A stretch of 60,114 nucleotides of DNA, counting the filler, from Hausera hauseri (Eukaryota), in assembly GCA_046269625.1 (NCBI GenBank). It is 11 parts of 11 records of this genome, joined end to end, with 100 filler letters (N's around TTAATTAATTAA, not from the genome) between each part and the next. Parts side by side here need not be neighbours in the genome. Positions count along the whole stretch, not along the records: positions 38,515 to 42,775 come from JBJURY010670996.1; 10 more parts are not named here. One strand, given 5' to 3'. Shown one piece after another: positions 19,476 through 60,114 of this stretch (positions are counted from its first letter, which is position 1; the number at the start of each line of letters is the position of its first letter). Made by a program: the position numbers and the translations under genes. Below the pieces are notes generated by a model. That model was not told where the DNA came from and did not search any database. It was given only the letters and a program-made list of their open reading frames with translations.

Positions 19476-20761
19476 TACGATGCACTATATGCATGTGCAA
19501 TTAGAATTTAAATCGATCGAGTGGATTTAGAATAATATGGATCCAAAGTGCAACTGGTGCAGACTTCCCATAGTTTTTTTAGGTCTCAAGGAGTCAAAAT
19601 TTGATACAAAATTTAGCGGGAACAGACAGGAAGTGTCACATTGTAACCCGGATCTTCCATCTCAGATTTCCGAAATTCGGTGCACAACTCGAATAAATAT
19701 TGATTTTCACCGAATAGTATCGATTATCTTGACATCTATAAATTTTTTTGAGAAATCTGACAACGCTAATCGATTCCCCATGTTTCCGTGCATCTATATA
19801 GCACTTTACAGATGTTTCGCAAATGTGTAGTGTGCTTTAATGAATAATAACGGTTTCCCGATAAAACGTTTGAAGTTGATTTTAGCACACAAGCAAATGA
19901 AGATCAAAAAATGTAAAAGAGCACACACATAGAAACTAACATGTGCTCTATCCGATTATGACACCAGATATCCGAAAACTCGAATACAAGTCGAACTTTT
20001 CGAATAATTGATATTCTATTCGAATAGAAATAAAAATCGAAAAATCTAAAAGCGTGGAGAGATAGAAACCCATATATGGAGAATCCGAATATAACGTCAG
20101 ATATTTGAAAAGGGGCTTAAATAAAAAAGCAGATTTTCCGATCGAATTTGAATATTTGAATATGACCATCGGATTCCGCACGTCCAAAAACCTTTGTAGA
20201 CCAAAAATTGGGTGTGCAAAGTGTTTCGAACAGTCACGAAATGAATGAAACATTGAGAAATTCGATAATATTTCGTCCAGAAGAAATTATTGGAATAATC
20301 TGATGACGCCATTTAATTGCTCATGTATGAAAATCTTGTTCAAATTTTAAATATGGGGCTATGAAATGTATGCAGTTGATGCATTAAAACAAAATGTTTT
20401 AGAATATTTGAAATACGATATATATTGCCTTGTTTACCTCGCTATATACGTTTATTTATACGTTCTTGTTGGCGTATATCTTAGCATTCTGACGTTTAGT
20501 GACTTTTTCTCAACGGTCTGGACCTGACGTTGGTGGGGGAACATACCATTCTTTACTTATCTTCCTGCCAAAGACAACTTCTGCTGGGCTCACCCCAGTT
20601 GNNNNNNNNNNNNNNNNNNNNNNNNNNNNNNNNNNNNNNNNNNNNTTAATTAATTAANNNNNNNNNNNNNNNNNNNNNNNNNNNNNNNNNNNNNNNNNNN
20701 NCTCCCGGAAAAATTTCATTCTCTCAACATTTATGACATTACGGGAAAGTTTCAGATCAAA

Positions 20762-21727
20762 ATGAAAAATAGTAAAACCAACCAGCAGGAAGACCTAATC
20801 AATCTGGACCCGAATCAAGGTATGTCACTGTCATACCAGATAGTAAAGAAGAATATACTGAAGATACGAACACTAACTAGCCGCATCATGCTCGGAGTGG
20901 AACTAATCAAATCAGAACCAGTATGGAAAACGCCCCCTCAAGGAAAATGCTTCAACTTAATAGAGCCCGATTATCTGAAATATGTTGACAAACCCTATCG
21001 ACGGGTTTCGCACATTTCTGAGGAAGATATCGTTATAACCGCAGTCAATTTGGCCTATGATCAGAACAATCAGCTCACCCCCATAGAATGCTCCGTAATA
21101 AACCTGCAAGGAGATGTTTTGTTTTACACAATGATTACCCCTCGGCAAAGGATCAATAACTTTGATTCACACATTACCGGACTCACAGAAGGAAATATTA
21201 ATAATCAAATGGACGCTAATGTATTCTATCAGAAAATCTCCGCCGTCCTTAATGATAAGTTAGTGGTTGGAGCCGGAGTTTTGGAGATGCTACGGAAACA
21301 TCTCCTTTGTCCGTTACGCCGAATTATGGGTGTACGTGATGTATTACATCACGAAGACATAATTCGGACGTACAAATTAGAAGCAAAAACATATAAGGAG
21401 TTGGCTAAGAAGTTTTACGAGATGAAAGGAATGCCACTCCGCAGTATGGCATTGGTACAATGTTACCATGCCCTCTACAAAACCTTACGATGGGACGATG
21501 ACATAATAGATGAAACGACGGCCTCCGATAGGGTCCTAACAAGACCAAAAGAACCTTCATCAAAGAGAAGAAGAATCGAAATAGAAGAAGAAATATTAGT
21601 GGATGGCGAAATTTACGTTCCTGATGGCCTTCGATACAAGTCTCCTTCTGGAAAAACCATCTTTCGATCTATGGCGTTAATTAATGAAAATTCGGGGCAA
21701 TCTTCTTCGAACCCCCATCGGAATTGA
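20762..21727 (+). CDS. DEDDh/REX4-like exonuclease-fold protein lacking catalytic residues (retroelement accessory ORF); frame is open back to the contig start at 20702
   Basis: IECSVINLQGDVLFYTMITPRQRINNFDSHITGLT...LNDKLVVG...VRD matches the REX4/REX1 pattern; ExoI DxE is replaced by AVNLA; homologous to 39441-40649. Confidence 0.75.
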   Translation: MKNSKTNQQEDLINLDPNQGMSLSYQIVKKNILKIRTLTSRIMLGVELIKSEPVWKTPPQGKCFNLIEPDYLKYVDKPYRRVSHISEEDIVITAVNLAYDQNNQLTPIECSVINLQGDVLFYTMITPRQRINNFDSHITGLTEGNINNQMDANVFYQKISAVLNDKLVVGAGVLEMLRKHLLCPLRRIMGVRDVLHHEDIIRTYKLEAKTYKELAKKFYEMKGMPLRSMALVQCYHALYKTLRWDDDIIDETTASDRVLTRPKEPSSKRRRIEIEEEILVDGEIYVPDGLRYKSPSGKTIFRSMALINENSGQSSSNPHRN

Positions 21728-25226: not shown

Positions 25227-25655
25227 TAATCCTATAGGGGGAAAGTTCGAATAGGACTGGCACACCGAAAAGGATTAAGCAAGGAACCTGGAGATTAGAA
25301 ACATTGAGACTTCAAGAGAGAAAACTTAGTTATAATAGGGTTGACATACAGGTGTAGGGCATTGAATGTTTTGGAGATTGTTTTAGTACACAGGGTGTCA
25401 CTATATTTTTTTGTTGCATTGGCACTGATGATAAAAAATTTATTTCAGGTGTATTTGGTATTGACTGCAGGTGAAGTACTAACATATTTTTTTTTCAGGA
25501 ACATTGTAGACGCAATTTTTTCAGGTTAAGTGCTCGATTGGGCACGGAAGGAAAATTAGTTTGTTCTACTAGGGGAAGTTTCACAAATAATAATAAAGAT
25601 ATTGTTTTGGGCTGGAAAGATTAACCTCTAACGGGTAGGTAACGTAATTACAATA

Positions 25656-26822: not shown

Positions 26823-26861
26823 AGGGTTCATACTGGAGCGGAAAGGAATATCACAGGACCC
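26798..26861 (+). promoter_or_regulatory. -1 programmed ribosomal frameshift signal (G_GGA_AAC + putative pseudoknot)
   Basis: Heptamer at 26798-26804 in the gag frame; -1 frame is open into pol; stems GCTCAGTA/TACTGGAGC and GGGTTC/GGACCC. Confidence 0.75.
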
Positions 26862-26887
26862 AAAAAGACGAGAGTAAAGAAGGGGAA

Positions 26888-29800
26888 TTGGGGAGAGGTA
26901 GGAAGCAAAAAGAGAGACCGTACCAAGTTAACTTAGCCGAAGATCCCAGCTCATGCATAGTTGAGATAGGTCGAAGAAGGGTAAGATCGCTGGTAGATAG
27001 CGGAGCGGAAATCTCGTTGATTAAGGAATCCCTATACCGTTCACTGAAGAATAAAGGGAATTGGTTTAGCAGAAAGGCAAACCTCCAATCAGTGTCAGGA
27101 GAACCATTGAAGGTAACGGGATCAACCAACCTTTGGATTAGGATAGGAAAAACAGAGTTAGAACATCCGTTCTTTATTGTCAAGAACATGAACCGAGGGA
27201 TGATTCTAGGAAGAGACTTTCTCAAGAAAAATGGAGTAAGGCTTTACTTCGATTTACAAAAACTGAGGATAGGGCAGGAATATGTTGATCTTCAGGATGA
27301 TATTCACATCGCTTCAGTGTTAAGAGTGGGCAAGAAAACGGTACTAAAACCAAACTCGGTGAACATAATAATGGGTAAATTGAGGAAGACTCCCTATTTT
27401 AGAGAAGGGCAGACAGTAGGAACAATTGAGATAGAAGGCGACATTATTAACGAACCCGGTCTGATAGTAACCGAGGGAATAGCCACAATAAGAAGAAATT
27501 TAGATATACCGGTCATGATTATGAATAGCACTCAAAAGACAGTCGCTTTACACACGGGATGTGTTATCAGCCGAGTAGTGAAATCAAACGAAGTGATTGG
27601 ACAGGAAGTAATGGGGGAATCCCCCGGGCGAAACTCCATCACGGAGGGGAAAATAGATCAAGCTCCCAGTACAGGTAGGGATAATAAAAATATGTGTCGT
27701 AACGAGCGGTTCTCGAATAGGGACAAGAAAGGGTACGGAAACCGCCAAGTTAGAACAATTGGTGAAACTAGAATTGGAAAAAGGGACCACCCTAAGGAAA
27801 ATAATGGTAGGGAGAAACTGAAGGAATTAGATCCTCGGAGTGGAGATAGAATACAAGAGTTATTAAGTCAGTTAAAGACGGAAGGTGAATGCAGAGGTAT
27901 GATGGAAGACTTTGTCAAAAGGCATGCGGATGTATTTGCCTTAAACGATTTAGAACTGGGTCGGACCCAGACAGTGACTATGGAAATTGACACAGGGGAC
28001 CATCCTCCCATCAGCCTGAAACCGTATAGGACTCCGCTGAAAAATAGGGAAATCGTGGAGAAAGCCATCGAGGACATGTTGGAGGCAGGGATTATAGAAA
28101 GAGTGAGGTCAGAGTGGTCATCGCCTGTGGTCATCGTCACAAAGGCTGATGGCGGACATCGTTTTTGTGTTGATTATCGTGGGCTGAACGGCGTTTCGGC
28201 GGATGTTTCTTATGAGATGCCGCATATAGAATACGTATTGGCTCTCCTCAATAAATCCGATTTCTTCACGACTTTAGATGCGAGAAGTGGATTTTGGTGC
28301 ATTCCGATGTCGGAGGAAGCAAAACGGAAAACCGCGTTCTGTACACATGTAGGTAGCTTTGCCTGGAACGTTATGCCGTTCGGACTAAAAGGATCACCTG
28401 CCACCTACATGAGTCTTATGGATAGAGTTTTGGAGGGTATGCAAAAATTCGCACTTGCATACATTGATGACATTTTGATCCATACCTCTGGAACTATAGA
28501 AGAACATTTGAGACACGTGGAGATGGTGTTCAATAGACTTAGGGAACACTCCATAAAATTGAAACTAAGCAAATGTGAATTTGCAAAGAGAGAGACCAAA
28601 TATCTCGGTTTTATTATCGGACGAAATGGGATCAAACCAGACGGTGATAAAGTCAAAGCCATCCGACAAATGCCGGCTCCTAAGACTGTAAAACAGGTGA
28701 GGGGATTCATCGGTACCTGTGGGTACTACCGTAGGTTCATCCCAAATTTCTCACAGATCGCAGAGCCACTTATAGCTCTCACGAGAAAATATGCTAAGTT
28801 CAAATGGGATGATGATTGTCAGCACGCGTTCGACTACTTGAAAGATAGTCTTACAAGGATTCCCTTGTTAGCTCATCCCGATCTCAGTAAAGGATTCATT
28901 CTGTACTGCGACGCGTCAGACCGATCCATAGGAGCAATCCTAGTCCAAGAGGGAGACGAGGGTGATGAGGGCATCATGCCGGGCACGAAAAATGAAAAAC
29001 CGATTTATTTTTTGTCCCACAAATTAAGTCCATCTCAACAAAAGTGGGGGACAACCGAAAAGGAAGCATACGCTATCTACTACGCGGTGCAGAAACTCAA
29101 TTTCTATTTGCATAATGCAAGCTTTGTGATCAAAAGTGATCACAAACCTCTAAAGAACTGGCTGAAAACAGGGGTACAAAACCGAAGGATTCAAACGTGG
29201 GTTCTAAACCTACAAGGGTACAGTGCACGCATAGAATATATCCCTGGGCCAGAAAATACATGTGCGGACTTGCTATCTAGGATCCCATACCCGGAAGTAA
29301 AGGCCGAAGAAGAAGAAAATGATAGCATGCCGGAGATCGATGACCGGACGTGGGGAATAAATGTAATAAACTCGGACAGACCTCACTTATATGACATGGA
29401 GAGCAACCATGATCAGGGAGGCGAAAGTCCCGAGTCAGAGGATCAAATGGGGATGGAAGGGGATATGAGAGTGGAGCAGGAGAGAGACGAGAACATAAAA
29501 CAGATAAAAGTAGATCTGAAATCTGGGACAGAAGAGGCTCGAAGTAAATGGAAACATTTCATTGTTTTAGCGGATGATGACGAGGTGTATCGAATAGCCA
29601 AGGACGAAGGGAGGCTCCAGAAATACATACCCAACCACCTAAGAGCAAGAGTATTACGGCAGTTCCATGACGAGAACGGACATATGGCTAGAGATAGGAC
29701 TTACGGGGTGATCTCGAAAAGGTACTACTGGCCGAACTTATATAAAGAAGTGATCGAATACGTAGGGCAGTGCGAAGTGTGTAAACTGAGAAACATGAAA

Positions 29801-31759
29801 CCTCTCCGGGCGCCGCTGCAGGAACCCGACCGACCGGATTACCCGATGCAGAAAATTAGTATAGATATTACCGGACCCCACCCAGTCACCCTGTCGGGAA
29901 ATAAGTATATTTTACATGTAGTTGATTGCTATAGCGCCTGGCCAGAAGCATACCCATTACCCGATAAGACCACGGACTCAATTATACATGTATTAAATCA
30001 GGAATTCATCCCTAGACATAGTTGTCCGGCTTACTTGGTTTCAGATAACGCCCGAGAATTTACTAGTGAGGCCTTCGAAAATACTCTTAGAACCTTGAAT
30101 ATCAGACATATAACGACCACATTTTTTAACCCGCAAGCTAACGGCATTAATGAACGATCCCATGCTACGCTGTATTCAATAATTGCCAAATACATACAAG
30201 GCAGACAGAATGACTGGGACTTGTACCTAAATCATGCCCTAGCATCCATTAGGACAAACGAGAACGGTAGCACCAAACACTCGCCGTTCGAATTATTGTA
30301 CGGGAGGGAAGCAGTTTTCCCCATGGACCACTTCCTAAAGCCATATCCGAAATATTTGGGCGAAGATTTCCACAAGATCCAATTACAGGAAATGCACCGG
30401 ACTCACTTAACCGTCCATAGGAATCTGAGGAAGGCGTTCGCGAGAGAAAAGCGAAGACTGGACAAAACCGCCGAAATGCAGGAATTTACCACTGGGGATA
30501 GAGTCTATTACAAGCGCCACAATAAGGACTCAAAATTTGATAATCGTTGGTTAAAAGGGTATGTAGTAATTAGGAAAACGGGAGCAGTTAGTTACCGAAT
30601 TATGAACCAGTTAAACAGACGAGAAATTAAAGCAAAAATCTCGCAGTTAAGGAGAGATGTTAGTAGGTGGGAGGAACCGAGAAGACAGGAAGGGGAAAGG
30701 AATCTTAGGAAAACCCGGTACGTGGTAACACCTAGAACAACTGATAAGGATAGCTCAAGTGAGGAAGGGAGAACCACACTGTCGCGATCAGAAAGCGAAG
30801 CTCTGCCAAGAGGTGGGTATACACCCCAGGTGCAACCACAAAATACCCCAGTGAGAGAGAATAATGATAATAATGAAGAGGGAAATAAAGAAGATACGAG
30901 TAGTGAGAGAATCGGGACAATGATGGAAAGACCAACGGTGCCAAGCGATCATGACGGGCCGAACCAAAATGAGGAGCTTTCTAGTGTGGATACGGCAGGA
31001 ACAGGAAACCCCTCTGAAGAATTGTCCACTTACCAAGAGGAACCCGAGGATGCTCCCTTTCGGAACACTAGGGCAGCAACTCGAAGACGAAATGAAGTAG
31101 CCAAAGAGCGACAGATAAGACATAATAGGAGAATACGGGAGCATTCATCTAACGAAAGTGATATTCCCATACCCGAGAGACAAATGAGAATGGAGGATAG
31201 AGAGGAGAGGCGCCAACGAGAAGAGATTCCAATAGGATCACAAGAGAGAGATTTTGGGAGTGAAACACGAGAAGGCCTAGACGAAGAAGAAGAGAGAGAA
31301 GCCGAAGAAAGGGAATTATTAAGCGGGGAGTCTTCATCGATTAGAGAGAGTGAAGATGCTGAAGAAAGGGAATTATTAAGAGGGGAGTCTTCATCGATTA
31401 GAGAGAGTGAAGATGGGGAAGAGAAGGAGGCAGAAGAGGAATCGGAGGAAATGGAAACAGGTAGGAACGAAGCCTATAAGCGACCATATGTAGGTGGTAG
31501 TAGCGATAGTGAAGGTAAGAATGCGCCGAAGCATTTAAGGCCGTCCGCCATAACGCGGAAACTGGAGGAGAAGAGGAGGAAATCCTTGACCGAAGGGAAG
31601 AACATGGTGGAGGTAGGACCGAGCATTGGAGAGAAAACGCGAGTTACGGAGGAAATGGACAGAAATCGCGAAACGAAACAGAGAGAAGGAAAAATAAGGG
31701 GCGCGAAAATAGGGCAGAATATAGTTAAAGCTTGGCGGGGATTATGGAAGCCAAGGTAG
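26888..31759 (+). CDS. pol: Pol polyprotein (PR, RT, RNase H, integrase, long acidic tail); translated as Gag-Pol from ~26804
   Basis: LVDSGA; RFCVDYR, YIDD; CDAS, SDHKPL, ADLLSR; HHCC (H..GH..C..C); IDITGP, SDNAREF, NGINER. Confidence 0.96.
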   Translation: MGRGRKQKERPYQVNLAEDPSSCIVEIGRRRVRSLVDSGAEISLIKESLYRSLKNKGNWFSRKANLQSVSGEPLKVTGSTNLWIRIGKTELEHPFFIVKNMNRGMILGRDFLKKNGVRLYFDLQKLRIGQEYVDLQDDIHIASVLRVGKKTVLKPNSVNIIMGKLRKTPYFREGQTVGTIEIEGDIINEPGLIVTEGIATIRRNLDIPVMIMNSTQKTVALHTGCVISRVVKSNEVIGQEVMGESPGRNSITEGKIDQAPSTGRDNKNMCRNERFSNRDKKGYGNRQVRTIGETRIGKRDHPKENNGREKLKELDPRSGDRIQELLSQLKTEGECRGMMEDFVKRHADVFALNDLELGRTQTVTMEIDTGDHPPISLKPYRTPLKNREIVEKAIEDMLEAGIIERVRSEWSSPVVIVTKADGGHRFCVDYRGLNGVSADVSYEMPHIEYVLALLNKSDFFTTLDARSGFWCIPMSEEAKRKTAFCTHVGSFAWNVMPFGLKGSPATYMSLMDRVLEGMQKFALAYIDDILIHTSGTIEEHLRHVEMVFNRLREHSIKLKLSKCEFAKRETKYLGFIIGRNGIKPDGDKVKAIRQMPAPKTVKQVRGFIGTCGYYRRFIPNFSQIAEPLIALTRKYAKFKWDDDCQHAFDYLKDSLTRIPLLAHPDLSKGFILYCDASDRSIGAILVQEGDEGDEGIMPGTKNEKPIYFLSHKLSPSQQKWGTTEKEAYAIYYAVQKLNFYLHNASFVIKSDHKPLKNWLKTGVQNRRIQTWVLNLQGYSARIEYIPGPENTCADLLSRIPYPEVKAEEEENDSMPEIDDRTWGINVINSDRPHLYDMESNHDQGGESPESEDQMGMEGDMRVEQERDENIKQIKVDLKSGTEEARSKWKHFIVLADDDEVYRIAKDEGRLQKYIPNHLRARVLRQFHDENGHMARDRTYGVISKRYYWPNLYKEVIEYVGQCEVCKLRNMKPLRAPLQEPDRPDYPMQKISIDITGPHPVTLSGNKYILHVVDCYSAWPEAYPLPDKTTDSIIHVLNQEFIPRHSCPAYLVSDNAREFTSEAFENTLRTLNIRHITTTFFNPQANGINERSHATLYSIIAKYIQGRQNDWDLYLNHALASIRTNENGSTKHSPFELLYGREAVFPMDHFLKPYPKYLGEDFHKIQLQEMHRTHLTVHRNLRKAFAREKRRLDKTAEMQEFTTGDRVYYKRHNKDSKFDNRWLKGYVVIRKTGAVSYRIMNQLNRREIKAKISQLRRDVSRWEEPRRQEGERNLRKTRYVVTPRTTDKDSSSEEGRTTLSRSESEALPRGGYTPQVQPQNTPVRENNDNNEEGNKEDTSSERIGTMMERPTVPSDHDGPNQNEELSSVDTAGTGNPSEELSTYQEEPEDAPFRNTRAATRRRNEVAKERQIRHNRRIREHSSNESDIPIPERQMRMEDREERRQREEIPIGSQERDFGSETREGLDEEEEREAEERELLSGESSSIRESEDAEERELLRGESSSIRESEDGEEKEAEEESEEMETGRNEAYKRPYVGGSSDSEGKNAPKHLRPSAITRKLEEKRRKSLTEGKNMVEVGPSIGEKTRVTEEMDRNRETKQREGKIRGAKIGQNIVKAWRGLWKPR
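31304..31415 (+). repeat. In-frame 57-bp tandem duplication in the pol tail
   Basis: EERELL(S/R)GESSSIRESED twice, copies starting at 31304 and 31361, nearly identical. Confidence 0.95.
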
Positions 31760-33603: not shown

Positions 33604-33677
33604 GCTTAATTATTTGCGGTTGTAGATCAGTGATGTGTGGAAATTATAGGGGGCGGCGTTTCTTTTGAACATACCTG
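33604..33677 (-). mobile_element. Tc1/mariner-type TIR inserted at TA in polB
   Basis: Minus strand TA|CAGGTATGTTCAAAAGAAACG; polB similarity stops exactly here. Confidence 0.5.
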
Positions 33678-34690
33678 TATATGACTGTAACTCAATATAA
33701 TTCAGTTGATACATGCTCAACTTGGAAAGATCAAGTACAGCCTGGCCGATATATGAGGGTCTATCTAATGTCACAATGTCTTTACCGAGAAGAACAGCAA
33801 CAAGATCATCGAATATTATAATACTCTCTTTAAACTGAGACTTACTAGCATATGTAACAAGCTTTTTAACATTGTTACATAGTCTCAAGTTTGACCTTTT
33901 TAAGAGGTTTTCAACTGTTTTACCATATAAGTTATTGTTCTTAAGCTTAAAAAAGTCTTTGTCAAAAGGATTTTTTGCTGCAGCCCTCTTAGCAGTGTTT
34001 AGATCAATGTAATCCTTAAAGACATAGCCTTGGTCAAACTCAACACCCGATGAACTTTTCAACTATAGCACCTAACTCCATGCACAACTGAAAGAGCCGA
34101 TAGTGAACAACATAGTTGGACTTACGCTCATGTGTCAGTAACAATTTCTTTACTTTTGAACCTGGCGGACATTGGTTGATTGGGGCTAAAGGAAGTTGGT
34201 CCAACTTATCATGTTTGTCTGCCGAAATGCTTATGTCCACTTCAAAGACTAAGCCTCGTTTCTCCTTAACACAGTCAATGTAAGGTATTTGTTGGATTAG
34301 ACTAGCCAAGACGTCCTCATCGTAAATCCGAGTTAGATTTGCAAATGGCAATGGTTGAGATAAAGCCCAGCCATATAAGTTATTTACATCTATATACAAG
34401 AGATTTGTGCTTTCATATGTTACAACCCTATGCTTATTTACAAAAGTCATGCCACCACGAATACCCGACTGAAAGAAGTGATACATCTCAGGATCCTGGA
34501 TGAGCTCAATCTTACAAGGACTGGTTTTCAGTGCTGTAGCCCAACTTAAACCGGAAATTGAGACAAAGTTAGCGGCTTATAAGCCTTCATGCAACTTAAC
34601 CTCCTTTCTAAACCGCGCAAAGACATCACTTAACAAGTAGACGTCGAGCTTTATATACACCAACATATAATCTAACTCATTCTGACAATT
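33678..34690 (-). pseudogene. polB: Polinton/Maverick/adintovirus-type family B DNA polymerase fragment
   Basis: DYMLVYIKLDVYLLSDVF, GIRGG, YIDVNNLYGWALSQPLP, FFKLKNNNLYGKTVEN, RPSYIGQAVLDLSK; frameshifted. Confidence 0.85.
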
Positions 34691-38514: not shown

Positions 38515-39440
38515 TCTGAGTTCGCATTTGACTGAGTTTCTCGGAAATTCGTCTCCAATTCATAGCAGTAATGGGGTTTTATCCGAACCACACGAGTGTA
38601 ACTACCGTTCGAAAAGTACTTCAGTTCAGTAGCTTCGGCTCTACACACCGGGCAGGTGGTTTTGCCGTTATCTAAGGTCCATTTCTCTAAGCAATCTCGG
38701 CAATATTTGTGTCGACAATCACGGTTATCCAATATAACGTATCCTTGACCGAGGTTCGCCTGGCATACGGGACATTCACTTTCCTCTTTATCCCACTTTT
38801 CATCATTTAGATCCACTCTTATTATGAGCTCTATAGGTTTAAATATGAGACCATCCTTGTCTTGGTATAGGTATCCGTGGATTCTTTTTTGTTCATGGTT
38901 CACAGAACTCTTTTTAGGATCACAGCCTACTGTCACTAGGATCCAATCTGCGATAGTATCTCGATCTAAGTCGGGAACTTCGCCATCCGTTTTATATTTC
39001 TGATACTGCTTTTTCAATAAAGCTTTCATTTGCTTATCCACGGGTAGTGTTAGCTTGCCGTTTCTTTTCAATCGAAATACTGGTGCAATATACTTTCCTA
39101 TTTTAGGGTTTTCCCAAATATAGGTGTTTTCATGTACTTCTCGTGCTGGTGTAGTCTTAATAAAAAACATCGCTTCTTTGATGGTTTGTCGACTATAGTG
39201 TTCGGTAGTTATTGGCATCTTAGGATAGTCTTTAGCGGTCGCAAAATGCATATTCTCTCGGGAATTCTTGTTTCTGAGGATGTTAACCTCCGTAAACAGT
39301 TGTTGGAATCCACTTTCAGCGCTCGTAAGTTTTCTAGGTATCTCTGGGATTGTAATCTGATTATCTGCGGACGTTGTGGGGATTTCTCTTGTTGAACTTT
39401 CGGGTCCTTTATTCACTTCATTGATTCGGTTCTCTTGAGC
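38515..39440 (-). CDS. RING-finger (C3HC4) protein, in frame with the upstream exonuclease ORF; 3' end cut by contig edge
   Basis: CPVC...DCRHKYCRDCLEKW...TCPVCR; only the TAA at 39443-39441 separates it from 39441-40649. Confidence 0.8.
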
Positions 39441-40649
39441 TTAATTTGAGCTTGTCTCTTTGTTTTTCTTTTGGAATAAGTAATCAGTGAATATACATTT
39501 CCTCTTAATCGGGGAATTTCGCGTTTCATCCCTTTCCTGTTGCGGTGGTACTTTGAATGTCTGGATTGCTTCTTTTTCCTTAATTGTAGATTTTAGTTCT
39601 GGAATTGGTTTAACGCGGGAATTGTAACTGGTGCTGGGCCTGTCGGCACTCGATTGATCTGATTTCCAAATGGTTATTTTGATATTGTTTTGCCCCATTG
39701 GTTCCGCGACTCTACATGGTAAATATGAACGATATTGCTTCCGATGCTTTTTATTGATAAGTTCTGGGTCGGATGTGTTTCGTAAATTTTGTTCTGGGTT
39801 ACTAGGTGTCCACTCATGGTCCCATTTTAACGCTACATAAATATCGCGTAGGTATTGAGTGCGTTGACTTGCGGTTAAAAATTTACTAATCTTAACATGT
39901 TTGCTATTTATGGCGTCTACCATCAATTTGAAATAGGCGTCAATAACCTTTGGTATAGGGTAATTTCTCTCTCGTAATATTCGTTTACTTTGTTCGGCGA
40001 CTACTGGATGTGTCCCTATTTCGCGCATTCCTGTGATGCTTGTTATGGGTATTTCCAAGAGTTCGATAATACTATCGATACGATATCCAGTTACGATGTA
40101 ACCATATAAACAATGCTCTAACTCGGCCTGAACAAGTTTGATGTCTTTACCTCTTGGACATGTCTCCTTACGAATTCCTGTCATATTGTAGTGGGTCTCA
40201 AAAACGCGTTTTCTTGGGCTAATAATCGTACAGTGTACTTCTGTTCCGTTTGTTTCTCGAACGGAGACTTCGATGGGAATCATTTTCACGTCATCCCCTT
40301 CTCCACAATTGATCGCTATGATTCGAGTATTTCTGGCGTCTTGCACTAATCTATACGATCGTAAGAATTTGTCCAAATCTTTTTCTGACGGTTTCTGATA
40401 GAATTCCAGGGACGGCAGTTTGATGTAAGGAGGATCGGCATATGTGACTTCGAACATTAATTTTATGGGGAGGGCGGCTACTCTGAATTCTAATTCATAA
40501 TTCTGTAAATCTTGGCTGCAGAGACTGAGAATACTGAACCTGTATTGTCTTCCGCTGCTGGTGTTCCATTCTTGGTCTTTGAACCGGTAGTATATCTCGC
40601 CATCTGCCAGGTGAATATAAATGTTCTGGTGAGTTTCGTATGTGATCAT
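39441..40649 (-). CDS. DEDDh/REX4-like pseudo-exonuclease
   Basis: IIAINCGE (cf. AIDCEM), PIEVSV, TIISPRKRV, MTGI, VQAELEHCLYGYIVTG, MREI. Confidence 0.75.
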   Translation of the reverse strand: MITYETHQNIYIHLADGEIYYRFKDQEWNTSSGRQYRFSILSLCSQDLQNYELEFRVAALPIKLMFEVTYADPPYIKLPSLEFYQKPSEKDLDKFLRSYRLVQDARNTRIIAINCGEGDDVKMIPIEVSVRETNGTEVHCTIISPRKRVFETHYNMTGIRKETCPRGKDIKLVQAELEHCLYGYIVTGYRIDSIIELLEIPITSITGMREIGTHPVVAEQSKRILRERNYPIPKVIDAYFKLMVDAINSKHVKISKFLTASQRTQYLRDIYVALKWDHEWTPSNPEQNLRNTSDPELINKKHRKQYRSYLPCRVAEPMGQNNIKITIWKSDQSSADRPSTSYNSRVKPIPELKSTIKEKEAIQTFKVPPQQERDETRNSPIKRKCIFTDYLFQKKNKETSSN

Positions 40650-41118
40650 TTGTTTGAGTGAATACGCTTAGGCATCCTTGTCTTCTCTCATGGCGTAAAG
40701 ATAAATAATCTTATTTTCTTCGGTTATACCCTTTAAGTTATTAGGAATTCTACTGGTCCGATTATACTTCACGAAGGTTCTATCATGTGATTCGTTGTTA
40801 ATTTCTCGAAATATCGATTTAGAATTTGGGAGAAAAACAGTGGCGTAGTTCTGTAAGAATTCGTCGATACTAAGTCGACGTTTTGACGATTCATCGATAC
40901 TACATCGTTCTCATCCTTGGGTAAATCGCGATCCGTCGATCCTAGGTCGTCCGGCATCCGTTTTCGTAATTCTCTCTGATCATCGGTCTAAAAAATAAAC
41001 AGTAATGGTTAATCTTACAGCACAGAATGGTTTTAAAATGAAACCAATTCTTGGTTTGGTGAAAGAATAACCCAATCTGTAATTGTCAAGTTATTTTATC
41101 GTAGACGTATTTTTGGGG

Positions 41119-42399
41119 TTACCATACCCTTAATTCCCGTTTTACGATTTTAGAGCGCTTAGTATGACAATTTACGTCAATTAATCGAAATATCGCGATA
41201 CATATTATAAGCACAAGCGTTGACAAACTTACACTCAGTATTATAGTCAGTGTACTCAACTTCTCAGATTCCGTAATCGTTGCTCTTGTTGTAGTCTCTG
41301 GTCTTGTGTTTTTGTCTACTTGGGGTGCTATTCGTATTTCTTCCTATGTTTGTATTGTGAAAGTTTGGCTCTGTGCATCTTTTGCATGTATTTGTATTAT
41401 GTATTCTGTTTTAGGTATGAGTGAATCACATTCGGTGTGATATGTGTTCTTGTGCAGTGTAGTTTTTATATGCTGGTACACAGTGCGGCAATTTATCTCA
41501 ACATCGTAGCTGAGCTTCTCTTCCACTGAGAAGACTATTTTACGTGATTGTCTCCAGTATTTTACAGGAATCCTGAGTAATTTTCCTTTACTCGTTTTCT
41601 GAGTTATAGTAATTTCGGAAGTGGTACTTATCGGAACGATTTGTCTCGTTGAAGTTGTTTCGACTGCAGTGTTCCAGATCCTGCTGTCTGGGTGATATCG
41701 TCCTAAGTAAGTACTCGACTTATTTTGCTGAATTCCATAGAGGTCAAAATGAATCCTATATTCATGACCTTCTTAAATTTTACAACATGTGCTAAGATCT
41801 TCAATTTTTAGACTGCAATATTTAGGCATTGAGCTTAACTCCTTTATTTTTGTGAATAGAACTGAAATCTCTTGTCTACTTTGTAGTCTTCCTTTCGTGA
41901 TTATTTGGATGCATTTGTCTTGCTTGTTTTCTGAAATAGTAACTATGTCTCCGAGTTCCGTTGTGTTCCCTCGCTCTTTAGCGGGTATGACCAACTTTAC
42001 TTGTGACCTTATTACTCCTTGTATACGTTCGTACATTCTGTAATACATTCGTATTGTGAAGGTGTAAGTGTCTCCATAATTCACGACACAACAATTTTCT
42101 TAAGCTCCATACGGAAAATTACAATAGGTCATTACTCGTTGTTTCGCATTCAATATGACTACTTGATATCTCACTGATTTTCTAACGGGTCCGTCCGTCT
42201 TAAATGACATGCAGTCTCGTTTGGAATCTATGCATTGGACCTTAAAACGGTCCAAGGTACTTAAGTCGTTTCTTTTTGTCATTATCAATTCATTCTTTAT
42301 TCATTTATTTAGTTGCTGAATTAGTCCTCCTTGAGCGCTTGCTCTAGGAACATATGAGGCTATTAATGATAGTGCTAAGACTATCTGTATATAGGACAT
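41119..42399 (-). pseudogene. Type-I membrane protein in the env position (signal peptide, Cys/FN3-like repeats, Thr-rich stalk, TM), four premature stops
   Basis: One reading frame continuous with integrase; MSYIQIVLALSLIASYVPRASA signal; DSLIPKTEYIIQIHA; TM LTIILSVSLSTLVLIICIAIF followed by a basic tail. Confidence 0.7.
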
Positions 42400-42775
42400 A
42401 GGTCTAGTGACTATAGATGAGGTTTTGACCTTCCTACATTTTGTTCTCTGGTTCGCTTTCATATCCTTGCTACGTAATTGGTATCGTTTATCTGGTCTTA
42501 TTTCTGTTTTTACCACTCGTTGTATTGACACTACTTCCTTTTTTCCGTTTTTATTAATATAGACTGTAGTGGGTGTTACTCTGATAACTTCGTACGGTCC
42601 TCTTCCGGTACGCGTGAGCTTCAATGATGTGCCTTTCTTAGCTACTGGATAGTCACATAAACCTAATCTCCGTTTCTTAAATCGTGTGGTTTCGCCTTTT
42701 TGTCATATTGCTTCTTAAATCCTTCTTGATATTCTAAGGATAGCGTCTTCGCTACTTCCCAACACTTTTGTAATC
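42400..42775 (-). pseudogene. Ty3/Gypsy integrase C-terminus (GPY/F module)
   Basis: KLTRTGRGPYEVIRVTPTTVYI...VVSIQRV. Confidence 0.8.
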
Positions 42776-43208: not shown

Positions 43209-44594
43209 TCACGTGTTGTGAACATCAAATCGAATGAATATTGTATCATTTTTGCAAAACATATCTTTTGATAGAAGTTTTTCCATTGCAATAAACTTTG
43301 GAGAGCCCGATGCTGTGTTATACTCTGATGTAGGTTGTAGATAGCACATAATATCCGCTTTGGGTTTGAACGTTTCTCTCAGATCTTTTCCAATATCTAA
43401 CTGATTTATAAGACTTATGGACACCTTTTGGTCGAATGGCCACGTAAGAATATCGTCATATTCTCCTTTCATAACGGCAAAAAACACGGATAAGTGAGAC
43501 CCTTTACCGAGTCCATCTCCATCAGGATAGACTTTCAAACACAATCTGTATCCAAATTGCTTGGAATAAAATGGATCACTGATAATATACGGCTTTCGAC
43601 CATTTTCTGCTTCTAATTTCTTTCTCGAAAATTCTGGAATCCTCCATACAAAACTCCCGCAGATGTAAGGTACATAGGATGGAATCGATAAATCCATTTG
43701 TAATTTCAGTGAATTCATATCATTTTTCAGAGAATTCAAAAAGTCTGTAGAACTTCTTTGAATTGACAATAACTCTTTTACTAACACTTCCTGTTGACTT
43801 ATTTTTGTTGTCAAATTATTTACGGTATGATTTAACTTGTCTATCTCCATTTCCATGGAAGATACGATAGAACCGTATCCATTCTGAAGATGGTAAAATG
43901 CCTCCAGTTTAGACATCGCATTAATGTCACAATCAAAATTGTGGAAGGGGCATTTTATTTTTTGTTTCTGGCACATTTGTCGATGACTGTACCAATTAAC
44001 TGGACCTGTGACGTCACATTTATTAATACAGAGTCCAACAAGCAATTTGCACAGTCCATCTGCATTGATATTTCCATGCACCTCATCGAATTCCTTTGCA
44101 GTTAACGACAATCCACAAGCTGGACAATTGGTGGATCTCATAGAGCACAATTCACTTTTGTGTACCATCTCATCGACAAATGCGTACGGTTTAGCACATT
44201 TACCACACACGACTGGACGATTGATGCAATTCACCAGATGGTTAGAAATATCCTTTAGAACGCTCTGAAAATCACATAGACGGAAAGGACATTTAACCGG
44301 TAAAAGAGATATTTCTTTATTAATCGCGTTATCCACGAATGTCTCCTTCTCATTGTCAGATAATTTATAATTGCACTCACTAAGTCCACTTGGACATCGA
44401 GCAGTCCCTGCCTCGATTTCCGATAAATACTGTTGACTACACGAATTGCACATTCGGCAACCACATGAGATCTGTACTGCATTGTTGAGAACATTTTTGC
44501 AATATACACATTTCAGTGTATCCTTTATCTCTTCAACGAATGTAATATCATATTGATGTCTGGTTTTAATCATATTCTGTATGATTTTATTCAT
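43209..44594 (-). CDS. TRAF: TNF receptor-associated factor (TRAF2/3/5-like), intronless
   Basis: RING, TRAF-type zinc fingers, coiled coil, MATH domain (FVWRIPEF, SDPFY, GYRLCLKVYPDGDGLGKGSHLSVFF, LTWPF, ASGSPKF). TATAAA at 44652-44647 and TCATT upstream; AATAAA downstream. Confidence 0.95.
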   Translation of the reverse strand: MNKIIQNMIKTRHQYDITFVEEIKDTLKCVYCKNVLNNAVQISCGCRMCNSCSQQYLSEIEAGTARCPSGLSECNYKLSDNEKETFVDNAINKEISLLPVKCPFRLCDFQSVLKDISNHLVNCINRPVVCGKCAKPYAFVDEMVHKSELCSMRSTNCPACGLSLTAKEFDEVHGNINADGLCKLLVGLCINKCDVTGPVNWYSHRQMCQKQKIKCPFHNFDCDINAMSKLEAFYHLQNGYGSIVSSMEMEIDKLNHTVNNLTTKISQQEVLVKELLSIQRSSTDFLNSLKNDMNSLKLQMDLSIPSYVPYICGSFVWRIPEFSRKKLEAENGRKPYIISDPFYSKQFGYRLCLKVYPDGDGLGKGSHLSVFFAVMKGEYDDILTWPFDQKVSISLINQLDIGKDLRETFKPKADIMCYLQPTSEYNTASGSPKFIAMEKLLSKDMFCKNDTIFIRFDVHNT

Positions 44595-45099
44595 GTTTCA
44601 ACAATTAAATGTTTAGTCGCAATGAAATTAACAAAACAACGCTTCATTTATAATGCAGTGATTATCAAACCAAATTTTTAAATCGTAGTTACTAATTATA
44701 GATTACGATGACTTTTGGATAAAAATAGATTTCATTGACTTTGGAATTTAGCAGAAGTGTATGTTGGCCGCGGACGTATCCACGCCGCCCATATCATCGC
44801 CCAGCTTGGGTAGGGTTGGAAAATCCCCGCCCCCTGATATGTCCGCTAAGGCGGAATTTGATCGTTTGTAATTACTCATTGCAGAGTTAACATCAATTGT
44901 TGAAATTTTTATTGTCTCTCAAAATACTCATTTGGAAACAAATTTTTCGAAATTCCAAAATTAAATTATACTTCTAATATTACATTTTTAAATTAAATTT
45001 TTAAAATTTAAAAATGTTTCTAATTTAAATTTAGAATTTCGGTTCTTGATTATATCCTCACATCCCCCTTTTTTAAGTATCTTCGTAGTTTCTACGTTT

Positions 45100-47180
45100 C
45101 TCTCCAAGGTTCGGCCATCTTTATGTCGTAGTATGTATCGGATTCTGGATGAAATATTTTGTTGCATGGCACAACACAAAGTGCTGTCATTGACATACAA
45201 GTTTCACAGGAGTAGAGAAACTCTTGCGATGTCCTTGCTTGAATCATACCACACATCTTCGTGCAACCACTGCTTTACTTGGGTTGGCTAGAATTACGTT
45301 CAAGAAATACTGCCCACGCAATTTTGACAAATCGGATGCTGTGTGATGCAGAAAGGATGTGCCTGCAGCTGTGAGTTCTTCACGGTCTTCTGTCTTGAAT
45401 AGTTCTGTGATTACTTTTGTACGAAATCACATTTGTCTGTGGGCACTACGCGTCTTCTTGTACAGCATATAAGAATTTGTCAATGCCATGTCAATGAAAT
45501 GAACGACGACTTTCTTGTACCAGTGTAATGTTTTCCAGAGAGGACAGCAGTATGAAGTCAGCTGGTCTGTTTTATCAACAACACATTATATTGTTGTAAC
45601 TGATGGTGCAATCTGGTTTTCTTATGGTCTCGCCTTTTCTGTTTCTCGCTTGACTGTCCATCATTCGACCAGGATGAAATGTAGTCAGCATGAGAACTTC
45701 ACGTTTGTCATGCCATTTCAGGATGACAATCCGGCCAAAACGTTGTCTTTGTTTGGTAGCCATTTCCTGTTACGGCGTAGTGTGCTTCCTAACAGTGTTT
45801 TGTTTTTCAACAGTTCTTGTGCAAGTGGTATGGCAGTGTAAAAGTATGTCGACACAAAATTCATTTCAAAAACAAAGACACTTTTCCATTAGCTTCATCA
45901 CAACAGCCCATGCCGCTGATGATTTCTGTTTTGCCACAGTAAACAATAGCATTCCATACGTAGCCACTGAGTTCACATAATAAGTATAACTTTACACCAT
46001 ACTTGTGTCTCTTTCCGGGTATGTATTGTCGAAATGTCAAACCGTCACGCCACAGTACCATTGTTTCATCTATGGATAGTTCCTTTGTGGATGTATACAC
46101 TATTTGATAATTAACGATCAAAGCGTCACACGCACTTCGTAGCTTGTTAAGCCTATCTCCTTTTTTGCTGTCGAATTATCAACAAAATTCCAAAACTTTA
46201 TCAGCAGTTCAAATTGGTTTCTGGGCATTATGCTGTTAATGACGGGGGCGGCAATAACAGGATCTGTTGATCAGTAATTCTCAACAACTGGCTTTTTGAC
46301 AATTCCCATTATCCGTATCAGACCCAAGAACTTTTTCATTTCAACAGCATTTGGTGGGTTCCAGTCATGCATCCTGCTTCTTGGTTTCAGTTGTTTTTGC
46401 TGTAGAATCTGTTCAGCATATCGATTAGTTTCTGTAACCATAATCTGAATTACATAATCTGTCATGAACAATGTGAAAAAGTCTATTGGCTGTACGTCAT
46501 CTGTCGACGCTGTTACTGAATGTGATATACATGAAACAGCAGTGATCGCTGTCAGAAAGTGGCATTTAGCAGTCAGATACATGTTGCCAGACATCAGATT
46601 CAGTTTCAGCCGCCACGTCACAATCCTCTGTACCCTATGTATTGTCTTCACAACTTTCCACCTCTGCTTCCACGTCTGATTCAGCAGGTGTTGGATCTGG
46701 AGCCATTGAAGATGTGTTACATTTGCTTATTTCTTTTTTTTTCTGTTTGGAGTTTACAGTAGACTGGATCCTGGATGCTCCCAGGTTGGCTGTCAGGTTT
46801 CCTTTCGGTAGCCTGGTTTGAACGAAAATCATATTCATCTGGACATTCATGATCACTTAGTCCGGAACTTTCTCTATCAAAATCATCTGATTCAAAAGAT
46901 TCAGACTCAGATCCTGTTGCCAACTGCAGTTCTAACACTTGTTTTTTGTTATATTAACGCTTTGCCATTATCGTCCTAAAGTAAACAAATGTGCACTAAA
47001 TATCAATGATACAGAAGAGCCAGTAGTAGTCGGTAAGTCAGTAATAATTTCAAAGCCAACATGTTATATTACTACCATGTATGCCTTCATACATCAGCAG
47101 AAACTTTACCTAAGCGCCGGACATCCAATTATGCACCATATAGTGACTGATGAGTATACTCGTCAGTAACGGACAATGTG
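45100..47180 (-). mobile_element. piggyBac transposon (PGBD4-like transposase), decayed
   Basis: TTAA|CACATTGTCCGTTACTGACGAGTATACTC terminus at 47180; SIDETMV, QYIPGKRHKYGVK, WHDKREV, KPDCTISYN; C-terminal RRCVV..CETC..LCVVPC cysteine-rich domain. Other end not identified. Confidence 0.9.
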
Positions 47181-53608: not shown

Positions 53609-56600
53609 NNNNNNNNNNNNNNNNNNNNNNNNNNNNNNNNNNNNNNNNNNNNTTAATTAATTAANNNNNNNNNNNNNNNNNNNNNNNNNNNNNNNNNNNN
53701 NNNNNNNNGTTCCGTCAAATCAGAATTGTAGTAAAAATTCGAGTAGATCGAAATCACCTATAAATGAAGACGGTCCACAGAGTCGGCAGAAATGGTAATC
53801 TAATTTGTTACATATGTGGACAAGAAGTACACGTAGCAAGGTCCTGTCCAAACCCACGAAGTGTTTTGTTTGTTGAACATAGCAAAACTATTGTAATTAA
53901 AAATGAGAATTTAGAAGCGATATCCGTAATTATACGAGCATGATTATCGAAATACAAGATTTACGACGTTTTTTGAAGGGTCAGCCTGATACTAATGACC
54001 CCGAAGTCTTAATGGCTAGGAATGAGTATGAGCACAAGTTGCGACTACTGGAAGTATATCATGGCTCCCGTGAGCCAGAAACTGAATATGAAGACTCAAT
54101 ATCCCCGCCAAAACTCATTGACATGGCACGAAAAAAGAATGTTCCTGCGATTACTAAGGTGCCAGGGAAACCGAATGAACTGAAAATTTTGGATGAAGTA
54201 GATTTAGATGCGGAACCTGAATATACGTTTGAAAAAGTAAATAAATCTAGAAGTTGATGAAGAAAAAGAATTTATGGAACCATTAATACTTAAAATTACG
54301 AAAACCGAGGCCGTAACCCTTCGTTAAAGCGAAAACGTAAGGATCGTTTGCGATCTCCTATGACTAAGGAAAATGTAGACACAGCGAAAGACTGAAATAG
54401 CTTTAGAAAGCGACGTAGAATTCAGTCTGAATACACCTGAGGTTGATTTAGCTTCACCTGTCGGAATAAAAGAATTAACTGAATCAGTAAACGAAGTAAA
54501 CTATATATGTCCAGTACCTGCTAGTGAAGAAGAGAAAGAACAAAGTGAGTGGTTTAATCAAAAAGGCTGGAAAATCAGACATTCGTGGAAAAATGCGGAT
54601 GAAGTAAATAAAATGCGAAGTAATTGTCTTGATCCAAGTTTTACAGCAAAATTTAGAGAAACTTAAAGAGATGAGCGAACAAGTAGACATTTCTGGTAAG
54701 GAACAACAATTTGTGGAAATATTGTACACAAATTGCAATTACGTAGTGAAGGGAAGCTCAGCGAAGAATTAGACTTAGAACAACCTGAAAAAGTATCACC
54801 AGAAACGTTGGCAAAATGGAAACACGAGTTAGAATCGTGGATAAAAAGTGGAATCAAATTTCCAGAAGAATGGGATAGATATACCGAGGATGTCGAAGTA
54901 ATAGTGGAAAAAGCTCAGACATTACTGACTATGTAACTTAGAGCGTGTTATGGATGGAATTAGTTTTGAAATGGTTGAGCGACTCAGAGAAAAAAACGGT
55001 TAATAAACGAAAATAATAAACGCAAATTTATAATTTGAGAAGCAGAATTATGTATGCGAATAATTAGGAAACAGAATATAATTAAGGCCTGTATCCTTGA
55101 ATTCGATGAGTACAAAGATGAGTTCAAGTATGCCAAGCAGATTATAAAAGGCCCTGATGACGAATTGGAAGACGCTTACAAAACGCTAGACAAAGCAATA
55201 CTGGCGAAAGCTGTAATAGGTAATCAACTAAGGGAATGATCCGGATTAATATGGAGACTGAGTCTGGTAGCGGAAAACCGGATAAAATAGTTCCCAGAAA
55301 GTGAACCAATAGTGAAGCCACAATTAGGAGAAACTTCATGAAACTTTGACACTATGAGGGCAGAAGCAGATATCCGAACGAATTTAGTGAATTGAGACCG
55401 TTAGAATTTATGAGTAAAACGAAAGAGATGACTGTCCTGAGGGAAATATATAAAATGATCGAAGAAACGGACTTTGAGTTGAAACGAAACTTGACATGCT
55501 AACTCTACCCATGCATTCGATGGCTTCGCCTAATAGGAGTCAAAAACTTAACGGAAAAGCCCTTAGGCGATTTTACAACGCAAGAACTGCAAATGTTATG
55601 AATTTTTTCAGATCATGAGAACTTTATTGTAGATGCGTTAAAGTTGTTGCACAATCCAACTAATTGGGTACTTGGAATGGATCAAAATTGGCACGCTACA
55701 TTGGCAGAAATAATGGAAGACCATCGACTTGGCGTTGAAAAAACAAGCTTCGTAAAGCAATTGATTGCAGAGATCGATACAGATTATAAAATCTTAGAAG
55801 AGATAAGTAAGTTGGTCCTATTGTTATTCGAAATGGCCAAATGAATGATGAAAAGATAAGACAGCTACAGACCCGAATATGCCAAGTTCGTGAAATGCAA
55901 ATTTGCACTGATCAGAGAAAAGCAGCAATAGATGAATTAACCCAAGAATTGGAAATTTGTCGAAATAAATATGCTATTACGGAGACAGAAATAGCTGACA
56001 AATCACAATTTGTGCAAAGATGACAAAGGGACGTAGCCTCTGAACTAACTAACTACGAAGAAAAGGATTGATCCAAGCCGACGAATTATGCCAGTTGTTA
56101 ACGTTATTGCGTCAAACTTCAGTAAATGGACGTTGTTTCCGAACGACATAAATTGTTAAAATACAACAAAAACTACGCGAATTGAGAGAATCGATACGTG
56201 ATACGAACGCAGTTTGACCAGCGGATATGCCAGTAATTGATTATAGATCGCCAGAGAATGAGTACGATCCAGAATGGGATGCGTACGTAGATGCAATGGT
56301 TTCCGAAAATTCGAAAACTCTTGTACATTTTTACGAAAAGGAGACGTGCTCACAGGATCGGAGATTCAGTGAGGAAATGCTTCTAGATTCGACGCAGACT
56401 GAAGATTTAGGTAACTTAATTAATGTAAACATCGTAGAAAATAAGTTAAGACAGTTCCTACCATTACTAAATTATCTACCGAAAGTATAGTGTATAGCGC
56501 CATGCCAAAACTTTTATTAAAGGAATATGCTAAAATCTTAAAGCTAAACCCGAAGAGGCGATTAAAGTAAGGATGTCGTCTAAATGGATGGATGAAAAAA

Positions 56601-57509
56601 GAAGAGTTTAATACGCGCTCTTTCGTAAGAGACGTAAAACAGTGGCTAATAAATAAGCAGTGGTGGTGGAAACGAACTGAATTATATATTCTAATTTAGA
56701 GGTAGAATATTATACGAATTGCAACAACTAACAGATGTTGGGATCATCCCAGATGAAATAAATCATATACTAGCAACGGTCACAACTGAGGAAACGAAAG
56801 AAGTCTCTCGAAAGGCTAAAACTAATCAATGTGTAGGACGGGTTATGGAAGTTCGAGACGCAGCAATGTACTTCGAATACTTGCAAACAGAAGACAAAGA
56901 ACAGTACGATAAAAATTTACTACCACCTAGTGAAGTCATATCAGTTACGACGAAACAGAAACGTCCTGTCGGCAGACCACGTATGATACAGGAAGAAATC
57001 GATTATAATGGAGACTTGTTTAGAGAACTAAGACAGATGTCCATACCTACCTTCAGTGCTTAGAAAAATTTAATACTCATAGTAAATCTCTCTTGTCTCC
57101 ACAGCGATGTACTAGATGAGAAAGAAAAAGCTATACATAATGCAGCCAGGACGATGAGAAATTTCCGTTTTCGAATATCAAAAATCACTCTAACCGATGA
57201 GACACTGATCGAGAAAATTATGATAGAGAATACCGTAGAAGAGTTAAGAAAAGTATTACTATATTTGACCAGTAAAACAAATCCGACTCGAGAAAACGAA
57301 TTTAAGAGCCACTAGCCTAGCGCGGAAAGCCGCCAGAAAATTACCTCGAGATGTAAATTTGTCGAAGCTATTTGAAAAAGAACATCAAAATATGCCCTCC
57401 TCTAGCATTAGTAACAGCAGACTTGAAGACAAGGTACGAAATTTAACCGGGAATAACCGAGAAAACGAGTCCAACTGACTAATTAACTTCCTAACTGTGA
57501 TGATGTTAA

Positions 57510-59961: not shown

Positions 59962-60114
59962 AGACCCTTCGCGAAAATTCAGTTCGAAGATTAGGAAGTT
60001 TACGCACTGATAGACACCGCATCCGAAATATCGCTGACAAAGCATGACTCAATACCGCAGTTTGTACGGAAACAATTATATCGACCTTCAACAACAGATC
60101 CAGGAAGTATTTGA
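59962..60114 (+). pseudogene. Retroviral-type aspartic protease N-terminus (start of pol)
   Basis: RPFAKIQFED*EVYALIDTASEISLT. Confidence 0.7.

Follow-up and report, generated by a model that had tools for sequence, protein, structure and literature searches.

Positions 38515-42775 of the window, i.e. of the whole stretch of 60,114 nt from Hausera hauseri that we analysed and in which 11 short contigs are joined with N spacers, hold a decayed 3′ part of a multi-copy Ty3/Gypsy element. This part is exactly one contig of 4,261 bp, which is read on the minus strand and carries two coding units. In the first, the integrase frame continues into a predicted type I membrane protein, which is the tail of the polyprotein and not the product of a separate gene. 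The second is an accessory gene whose predicted protein joins an AlkB-like fold, a DEDDh exonuclease fold with its catalytic positions replaced and a RING finger. Our confidence in this anatomy (frames, domain order, two coding units) is high. Both contig edges cut through open reading frames (ORFs), only the integrase tail of pol is included, and no reverse transcriptase (RT), envelope or long terminal repeat (LTR) is in view on the contig. We consider it likely that the element is of the envelope-bearing GAG-ENV-POL kind.

Coding units of the element contig

The GPY/F module of the Ty3/Gypsy (Metaviridae) integrase C-terminus was present on the minus strand, with GPY at 42600, as a first-pass annotation of this DNA had claimed. 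The integrase tail of L015, an intact related locus described below, matched the contig by tblastn with E = 4.6e-10 and 2.9e-4 in two frames, against only E = 0.87 for an ordinary Gypsy tail from elsewhere in the window. The annotation had counted three co-oriented units after this module. Their co-orientation stood and their number did not: integrase and membrane protein share one frame with no stop in between, and the exonuclease and the RING are one ORF, which the intact homologue P0004 reads as a single protein.

The proposed FN3-like type I membrane protein was borne out as regards a signal-like stretch from 42399 (hydropathy 1.4) and a transmembrane helix from 41247 (2.9), separated by an ectodomain region of about 360 residues, and not as regards its being a separate gene. 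From GPY to the signal there are 70 residues, vs 84 in L015. The Pfam fn3 match (E = 0.051) scored 14.2 bits, below the cut-off of 25. With a hidden Markov model (HMM) of six modules from loci L013 and L015, the FN3-like segment ranked first of 2,088 real and reversed segments (E = 1.4e-4, runner-up 0.49), the anchors of this HMM having been picked by eye after the sequences were seen and two of its six modules having failed leave-one-out. Direct tblastn of the L013 and L015 membrane modules gave no match in the membrane region of the window, where the profile alone matched. This protein is probably not the envelope, because in L015 the class III fusogen is encoded apart from it, upstream of pol.

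A spacer of about 130 nt lies between the membrane frame and the accessory frame, and the splice acceptor that had been proposed at about 40989 was found in it as TTTTTTAG, at 40995-40988. In each of the two public runs considered below, the summed depth of related contigs was higher in only one other bin than in the bin with this motif. At 9 of 13 related loci the accessory ORF has a YAG 0-3 nt ahead of its first ATG, a count made with no control run. The accessory gene is thus likely spliced, as judged from sequence, and it is the only one that looks so: the earlier picture of a complex retroelement holds for the multi-copy family and for one spliced gene, the membrane protein not being a second.

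The accessory frame runs for about 800 codons to the contig end at 38515. Both frames are clearly more open than their alternatives, with 4 stops in 527 codons for the integrase-membrane frame (vs 55 and 35) and 2 in 784 for the accessory frame (vs 47 and 62). This copy is nonetheless broken, a state that had gone unreported together with the AlkB-fold domain: the integrase has a stop and a frame break, the membrane part has 4 stops, and the accessory frame has stops at 40913, 40670 (40670-40668) and 39443 (39443-39441). A genetic code with stop read-through was ruled out, since all three stop codons occur, a frame break is present and P0004 is continuous. All the features are collected in Table 1.

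Table 1. Coordinates of the features on the element contig and of a second family member in the window
Feature	Position	Strand	Basis and remarks
Integrase C-terminal tail: GPY module (GPY at 42600) and basic linker	42400..42775	-	Runs off contig end; stop 42665-42663, frame break nearby
Predicted internal signal peptide, integrase frame	42334..42399	-	Hydropathy 1.43
Predicted ectodomain, Cys-rich and beta-rich, at least one FN3-like module (about 41517-41386)	41250..42333	-	Stops 42303, 42102, 41775, 41346
Predicted transmembrane helix, short basic cytoplasmic tail and polyprotein-frame stop	41119..41249	-	Hydropathy 2.87; stop 41121-41119
Likely splice acceptor TTTTTTAG in the spacer before the accessory gene	40988..40995	-	Sequence; related-contig depth; YAG near ATG in relatives
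N-terminal domain, predicted AlkB/2-oxoglutarate (2OG)-Fe(II) oxygenase fold, without conserved HxD	40440..40868	-	48% and 43% identity to P0004; stop 40670-40668
ISG20/REXO4-type DEDDh exonuclease fold, all five catalytic positions replaced	39810..40325	-	P0004 model, family profile, catalytic columns
Low-complexity linker, probably disordered	39170..39809	-	Predicted local distance difference test (pLDDT) <50 in P0004 counterpart; stop 39443-39441
Conserved beta-rich domain preceding the RING, fold without assignment	38810..39169	-	Within 45%-identity block with P0004; low pLDDT
C3HC4 RING finger, eight of eight zinc ligands in RING spacing	38643..38774	-	Pfam zf-RING_2 E = 1.6e-9; ORF goes on to 38515
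Second, divergent accessory-family member, other contig	20702..21724	+	23% identity, E = 1.6e-6; 60% to P0003; catalytically degenerate, no RING, 5′ part missing

The accessory protein and its family

A profile of the exonuclease ORF and its divergent homologue in the window retrieved 98 proteins from 1.84 billion representatives. Among them P0004, an unbroken protein of 870 aa, is collinear in one frame with 40868-38553 at 38% identity, RING included. A word-indexed protein search returned 0 of 1,161 candidates for the exonuclease ORF and only P0004 itself among 6,495 for P0004, a search with the family profile gave 10 metagenome proteins among 8,000 scored, a single-sequence PDB search gave 0 matches, and scans of viral contigs and of genome contigs found no member. 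Pfam detected RNase_T in just 14 of 36 members.

For the DEDDh-fold ORF of the first-pass annotation several lines of evidence agreed, precisely an Atlas RNase_T score of 0.93, profile matches to ISG20L2/PolC exonuclease at E of about 1e-5 and the match of P0004 model residues 243-417 to ISG20 (Z 17.6, root-mean-square deviation (rmsd) 2.4, 158 residues aligned). The family profile matched ISG20L2 with E = 8e-31, and the nuclease type is near ISG20 and SDN1. This P0004 model was built on a 43-row alignment and is mostly confident at about residues 55-430 and at the RING; an AlphaFold model from a two-sequence alignment had a pLDDT of 34 and was unusable.

Residues 50-207 of the same model matched Ofd2 (Z 9.8), ALKBH1 (8.9), ALKBH6 (8.9), FTO (8.4), ALKBH5 (8.4) and AlkB (8.2). 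The AlkB-type matches covered 133-146 residues with rmsd 3.5-4.5 and included two prolyl hydroxylases, and Foldseek with this domain also matched plain cupins. We therefore predict, from the model, a double-stranded beta-helix fold with an N-terminal extension, of the AlkB/2OG-Fe(II) dioxygenase type. The domain is present in 46 of the 98 proteins. As regards the HxD...H iron triad, sequence comparison of 19 aligned domains gave no HxD and only scattered HxE. The domain before the RING had no confident model and no usable Atlas match. The C3HC4 RING was found as annotated, with all eight ligands, in the same zinc-ligand pattern as in P0004, and may have E3 ligase activity.

The annotation had called the exonuclease dead, and this holds at the level of the lineage. 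We scored the DEDDh residues in 56 partly redundant sequences (46 hits, 8 locus ORFs and 2 window ORFs): 31 kept them, 19 lost them and 6 were incomplete, so that catalysis is lost in 19 of the 50 fully scored sequences and the full D-E-D/E-H-D set is kept in 31. DEDDh positions are replaced in the element-contig protein, in its paralogue at 20702-21724, in P0003 and in P0004, and all five are replaced in the element-contig protein and in the sole close homologue that spans all five; by alignment, motif I reads A-x-N in place of D-x-E. Since these four proteins share it, the loss is a lineage trait and not decay of this copy. The intact members keep the His, which makes them DEDDh type and separates them from the DEDDy/RNase D type of bdelloid elements.

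On a quickly built tree, which has long branches and covers 92 of 108 domains after removal of 16 short rows, a long branch with a Shimodaira-Hasegawa-like approximate likelihood ratio test (SH-aLRT) value of 100 separates the accessory family from 26 rows of stand-alone exonucleases. The degenerate state needs at least three changes on this tree. Basic motifs like nuclear localization signals (NLS) occurred in 19 of 35 tails, vs 4.5 expected. The RING, on the sequences at hand, is a lineage-specific addition; it therefore cannot be the core function of the family, and the Vif- or ICP0-like role suggested in the annotation stays hypothetical.

Linkage to a multi-copy retroelement

With a profile of intact members we found 15 related metagenome loci in two assemblies. 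In L015, positions 1-9657 are one frame of 3,219 residues, open at the 5′ end, that encodes in order a Monjiviricetes-type fusion glycoprotein (PF24664, E = 5e-94, a class III envelope upstream of pol), two proteases, a signal-ectodomain-transmembrane module, a third protease, RT, RNase H and integrase with GPY. It thus shows the protease-RT-RNase H-integrase order, with three aspartic proteases and with two membrane modules flanking RT, RNase H and integrase: a second in-frame module follows the GPY, and then come the DEDDh gene and a coiled-coil ORF. This polyprotein is remarkable by itself and deserves a separate description. The gene order of the element contig is that of the L015 3′ part, and the two share strand order, intronless state and A-rich composition. 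A membrane ORF precedes the accessory gene in 5/5 loci with a long upstream ORF in view (L001, L002, L010, L013, L015).

Downstream, at 39-895 nt past the accessory gene, a likely polypurine tract (PPT) followed by a TGT start was found in 6 of the 15 loci, vs 0.007 expected per shuffle. The conserved block CCCC-GAGA-TGT in 6/15 loci is, by its sequence, likely a short PPT and the start of an LTR. No paired LTRs were seen at the related loci.

A conserved palindromic block stands just before the likely PPT in four loci (L006:2787, L007:2829, L009:3191, L011:1110). L006 and L007 are 99% identical over 909 nt up to the TGT and unrelated beyond it, which suggests either LTR swapping or an element end with target preference. 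At L002:3-1679 a protease leads directly to a Cys-rich mucin-like type I membrane protein and then to the exonuclease gene, with no RT or integrase between; the same end of such an ORF was seen at L001:2-973 and L010:1-1245. This arrangement is either a deleted non-autonomous form or a rearranged lineage. Short coiled-coil ORFs, which we considered as further accessory genes, adjoin the exonuclease gene at L013:1773-3058 (duplicated), L012:588-1166 and L015:11607-12041.

In a public run (X1), 2,593 contigs matched the element contig, with depth in 30/30 bins; 2,494 of them were <99% alike and most <95% alike, while exact-match contigs had a depth of 6-8. Summed depth, which by the tool's warning is no copy number when taken over related contigs, reached thousands at the integrase, the acceptor, the exonuclease and the RING and had its minimum over the linker and the membrane region. 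The integrase tail and the signal stretch are connected by joints in diverged contigs, and in a second run (X2) a single contig covers spacer, acceptor and AlkB domain together. The cassette is multi-copy and element-borne. In stop-free ORFs, 30 differences listed from the best-supported 40 of about 1,096 rows fell at third codon positions in 17 cases (p = 0.007) and were synonymous in 16, i.e. 16/30 vs 0.28 expected (p = 0.003).

The other contigs of the window are mostly eukaryotic transposon pieces or intronless eukaryotic ORFs. At 53709-60114 a decayed zinc knuckle lies upstream of a likewise decayed Monjiviricetes-type fusion envelope (E = 1e-19 to L015) with a weak membrane-module match; this contig probably represents the 5′ half of an element of this kind in the same genome. 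An ordinary Gypsy gag with two knuckles and a pol frame of 1,658 aa are intact at 25632-31759 (+), the pol having a long acidic tail after the integrase with a 57-nt tandem duplication. An intronless 462-aa TRAF-like ORF at 43209-44597 (-) has a RING, zinc fingers, a coiled coil and a MATH domain (E = 7e-36). By eye we also noted fragments of a Polinton-type DNA polymerase B at 33610-34576 (-), BEL/Pao elements at 9482-13209 (-) and a piggyBac transposase at 45861-46726 (-).

Possible function and comparison with known systems

In our tentative judgement, the accessory protein is most likely a nuclear counter-silencing factor. The long RNA would give one polyprotein, cut by the element proteases and by signal peptidase; the latter would free the membrane module, which would have an auxiliary role at the surface, either as partner of the separate class III fusogen or as a decoy. 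Spliced RNA would give the accessory protein, probably nuclear, whose two dead folds may serve for RNA binding, perhaps of methylated or small RNA. Relatives with an intact active site would trim RNA of this kind, while the lineage of the element contig would hold it and, by means of the RING, ubiquitinate a bound host silencing protein. We favour counter-silencing because the fast divergence, the ISG20/SDN1-like nuclease type, the AlkB fold and the gain of the RING fit a conflict with host RNA defence. Precedents exist for such a role: the arenavirus DEDDh ExoN suppresses innate signalling (PMC7968707), the AlkB of an orchid Gypsy has been proposed to act against N6-methyladenosine (m6A) surveillance (PMC9289625), and planarian transposons are under nuclear PIWI control (PMC8532177).

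The same element could instead encode a Rev- or CERV-like nuclear binder of its own unspliced RNA that aids export or stability, with catalysis dispensable and the RING secondary. A spliced element has to export unspliced RNA, and CERV of Cer1 is just such a protein, spliced, nuclear, with a captured G-protein-like fold without catalytic residues, and needed for genomic RNA export (PMC10309623). The 19 of 50 sequences without catalysis, their at least three origins on the tree and the enriched NLS-like motifs suit an export factor, which explains dispensable catalysis as well as counter-silencing does. A factor for export alone would not be expected to keep the full catalytic set, as the other 31 do, and would have no need of a RING fusion, and no likeness to CERV in sequence or fold was seen; on balance we hold export to be somewhat unlikely. 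The gene could also be a replication helper, a 3′-5′ exonuclease that trims ends of element RNA, primer or cDNA, the dead lineages being structural remnants: the closest folds, ISG20 and ISG20L2, are structured-RNA trimming enzymes, and the same role was proposed for the bdelloid DEDDy ORF3s (PMC5408684). The dead versions, with their synonymous excess, 38% identity across lineages and an added RING, point to a maintained non-catalytic role and make a mere helper improbable.

It is very improbable, lastly, that the exonuclease-RING gene belongs to the host, or was inserted separately, and lies beside an integrase remnant by chance. No LTR is visible, the contig at 20702-24650, whose 5′ side is missing, shows a family member but no pol, and the RING-bearing subfamily is tied to pol on the element contig alone; against this, the gene is intronless, on the same strand and A-rich like L015, thousands of diverged related contigs exist and some cross the spacer, the acceptor and the AlkB domain, the same gene order recurs at independent loci, and the family is split from the 26 stand-alone exonucleases with SH-aLRT 100.

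Several points also weigh against counter-silencing by an element of this kind. The 15 loci come from two assemblies only and include near-duplicates, and the chassis of the element contig is borrowed from L015, whose exonuclease is intact and belongs to a distant subfamily without RING. There is no PPT match in the 440-816 nt of downstream sequence of L014, L015 and L001/L002, and the PPT pattern, like the FN3 anchors, was chosen after the sequences were seen. Run X1 may be the source sample of the window itself, and the 30 differences are not a random sample. The RING occurs in 1 of 46 family hits. The linker of the element-contig protein does not fit the NLS pattern, which was also chosen after seeing the sequences, and the tool's own guidance rates Z-scores of 8-10, such as those for AlkB, as middling, with ligand positions judged from sequence and not from a residue-level structural alignment.

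Taken at its boldest, the counter-silencing reading describes an undescribed lineage of complex enveloped invertebrate retroviruses. Their polyprotein would carry a class III fusogen, several proteases and FN3-like surface proteins, and their spliced gene a pseudo-AlkB that reads methylated RNA for a captured ISG20-like exonuclease; some lineages would have turned this into an E3 ligase, guided by RNA, for the destruction of proteins of the PIWI pathway or of m6A surveillance. We regard this full picture as speculative and rather unlikely. To our knowledge, few invertebrate LTR elements carry retrovirus-style accessory genes, and for almost none of these elements is a function against the host known. 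The accessory family supplies one defined protein in active and dead forms, so that suppression of PIWI-interacting RNA (piRNA) or m6A surveillance by an animal retrotransposon becomes testable by ordinary biochemistry; as many family members escape Pfam, genes of this type have probably gone without annotation in flatworm-type genomes.

In the full-text literature, including term searches of PMC11410931 and PMC8532177 and with Repbase, the original Burro report and the nematode paper cited there outside the scope, we found no description of the AlkB-fold/DEDDh fusion, of its dead RING-bearing form or of an integrase-fused FN3-like membrane protein. Troyka elements and Kuafuorterviruses (PMC12440569; PMC11673190) were considered and set aside, since they are defined by lacking a GPY/F motif and an envelope (PMC12440569) whereas GPY is present here and an envelope in L015.

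A close comparison is with the GAG-ENV-POL Ty3/gypsy errantiviruses with an envelope of the herpes simplex virus glycoprotein B (HSV/gB) type, known from Platyhelminthes, Bryozoa and Nematoda (Chary and Hayashi, PMC13524379). Like them, L015 has a class III-type fusion envelope upstream of protease, RT, RNase H and integrase, and by eye, not by computation, this envelope resembles the Smed_errantivirus_1 (Schmidtea) row of their supplement, from which the host group of the element is likely flatworm. Beyond their layout, L015 has two more proteases, two membrane modules and the accessory gene; the main text of that paper has 0 mentions of exonuclease, fibronectin, RING, AlkB or accessory, and the terms exonuclease, fn3 and fibronectin are likewise absent from its 7 searchable supplements. 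Burro/GYPSM1, a giant planarian Gypsy of >30 kb, also has a huge polyprotein, with a mononegavirus-like envelope in frame between gag and pol (PMC6431247), and shares with our element ubiquitination-related accessory domains. Its extras are MATH_TRAF, BIR, BCL2, ankyrin, SUMO-like, dUTPase and an AIR1 RING-type motif within ORF1, and in the text covered it has no named exonuclease or post-integrase membrane module. Since Burro elements are reported to carry MATH_TRAF domains, a mobile origin of the TRAF-like ORF at 43209-44597 is possible. The Burro trait of a dUTPase between protease and RT was not found in the L015 polyprotein with Pfam at E <= 1, the published call having used the more sensitive HHpred.

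DnaQ-like exonucleases have been called well-known LTR accessory domains (PMC6338049), and the bdelloid Juno and Vesta elements have a separate, typically spliced DEDDy exonuclease ORF3 after pol (PMC5408684). That ORF3 is of the DEDDy/RNase D type, intact, and replaces the envelope, whereas the present gene is of the DEDDh/ISG20 type, AlkB-fused, often dead, and occurs besides an envelope. The orchid Ty3/Gypsy with an AlkB m6A demethylase (PMC9289625) is likewise a large element in which an additional ORF encodes an AlkB-fold domain; the plant domain is a recent capture, active and stand-alone, while ours is highly diverged, has no conserved HxD and is exonuclease-fused. As in CERV of the C. 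elegans Cer1 (PMC10309623), finally, a spliced nuclear accessory protein, here by prediction, would be built on a captured enzyme fold without catalytic residues; CERV differs in its G-protein-like fold with a Cys loop, with no homology detected, and in an RNA export function that has been shown.

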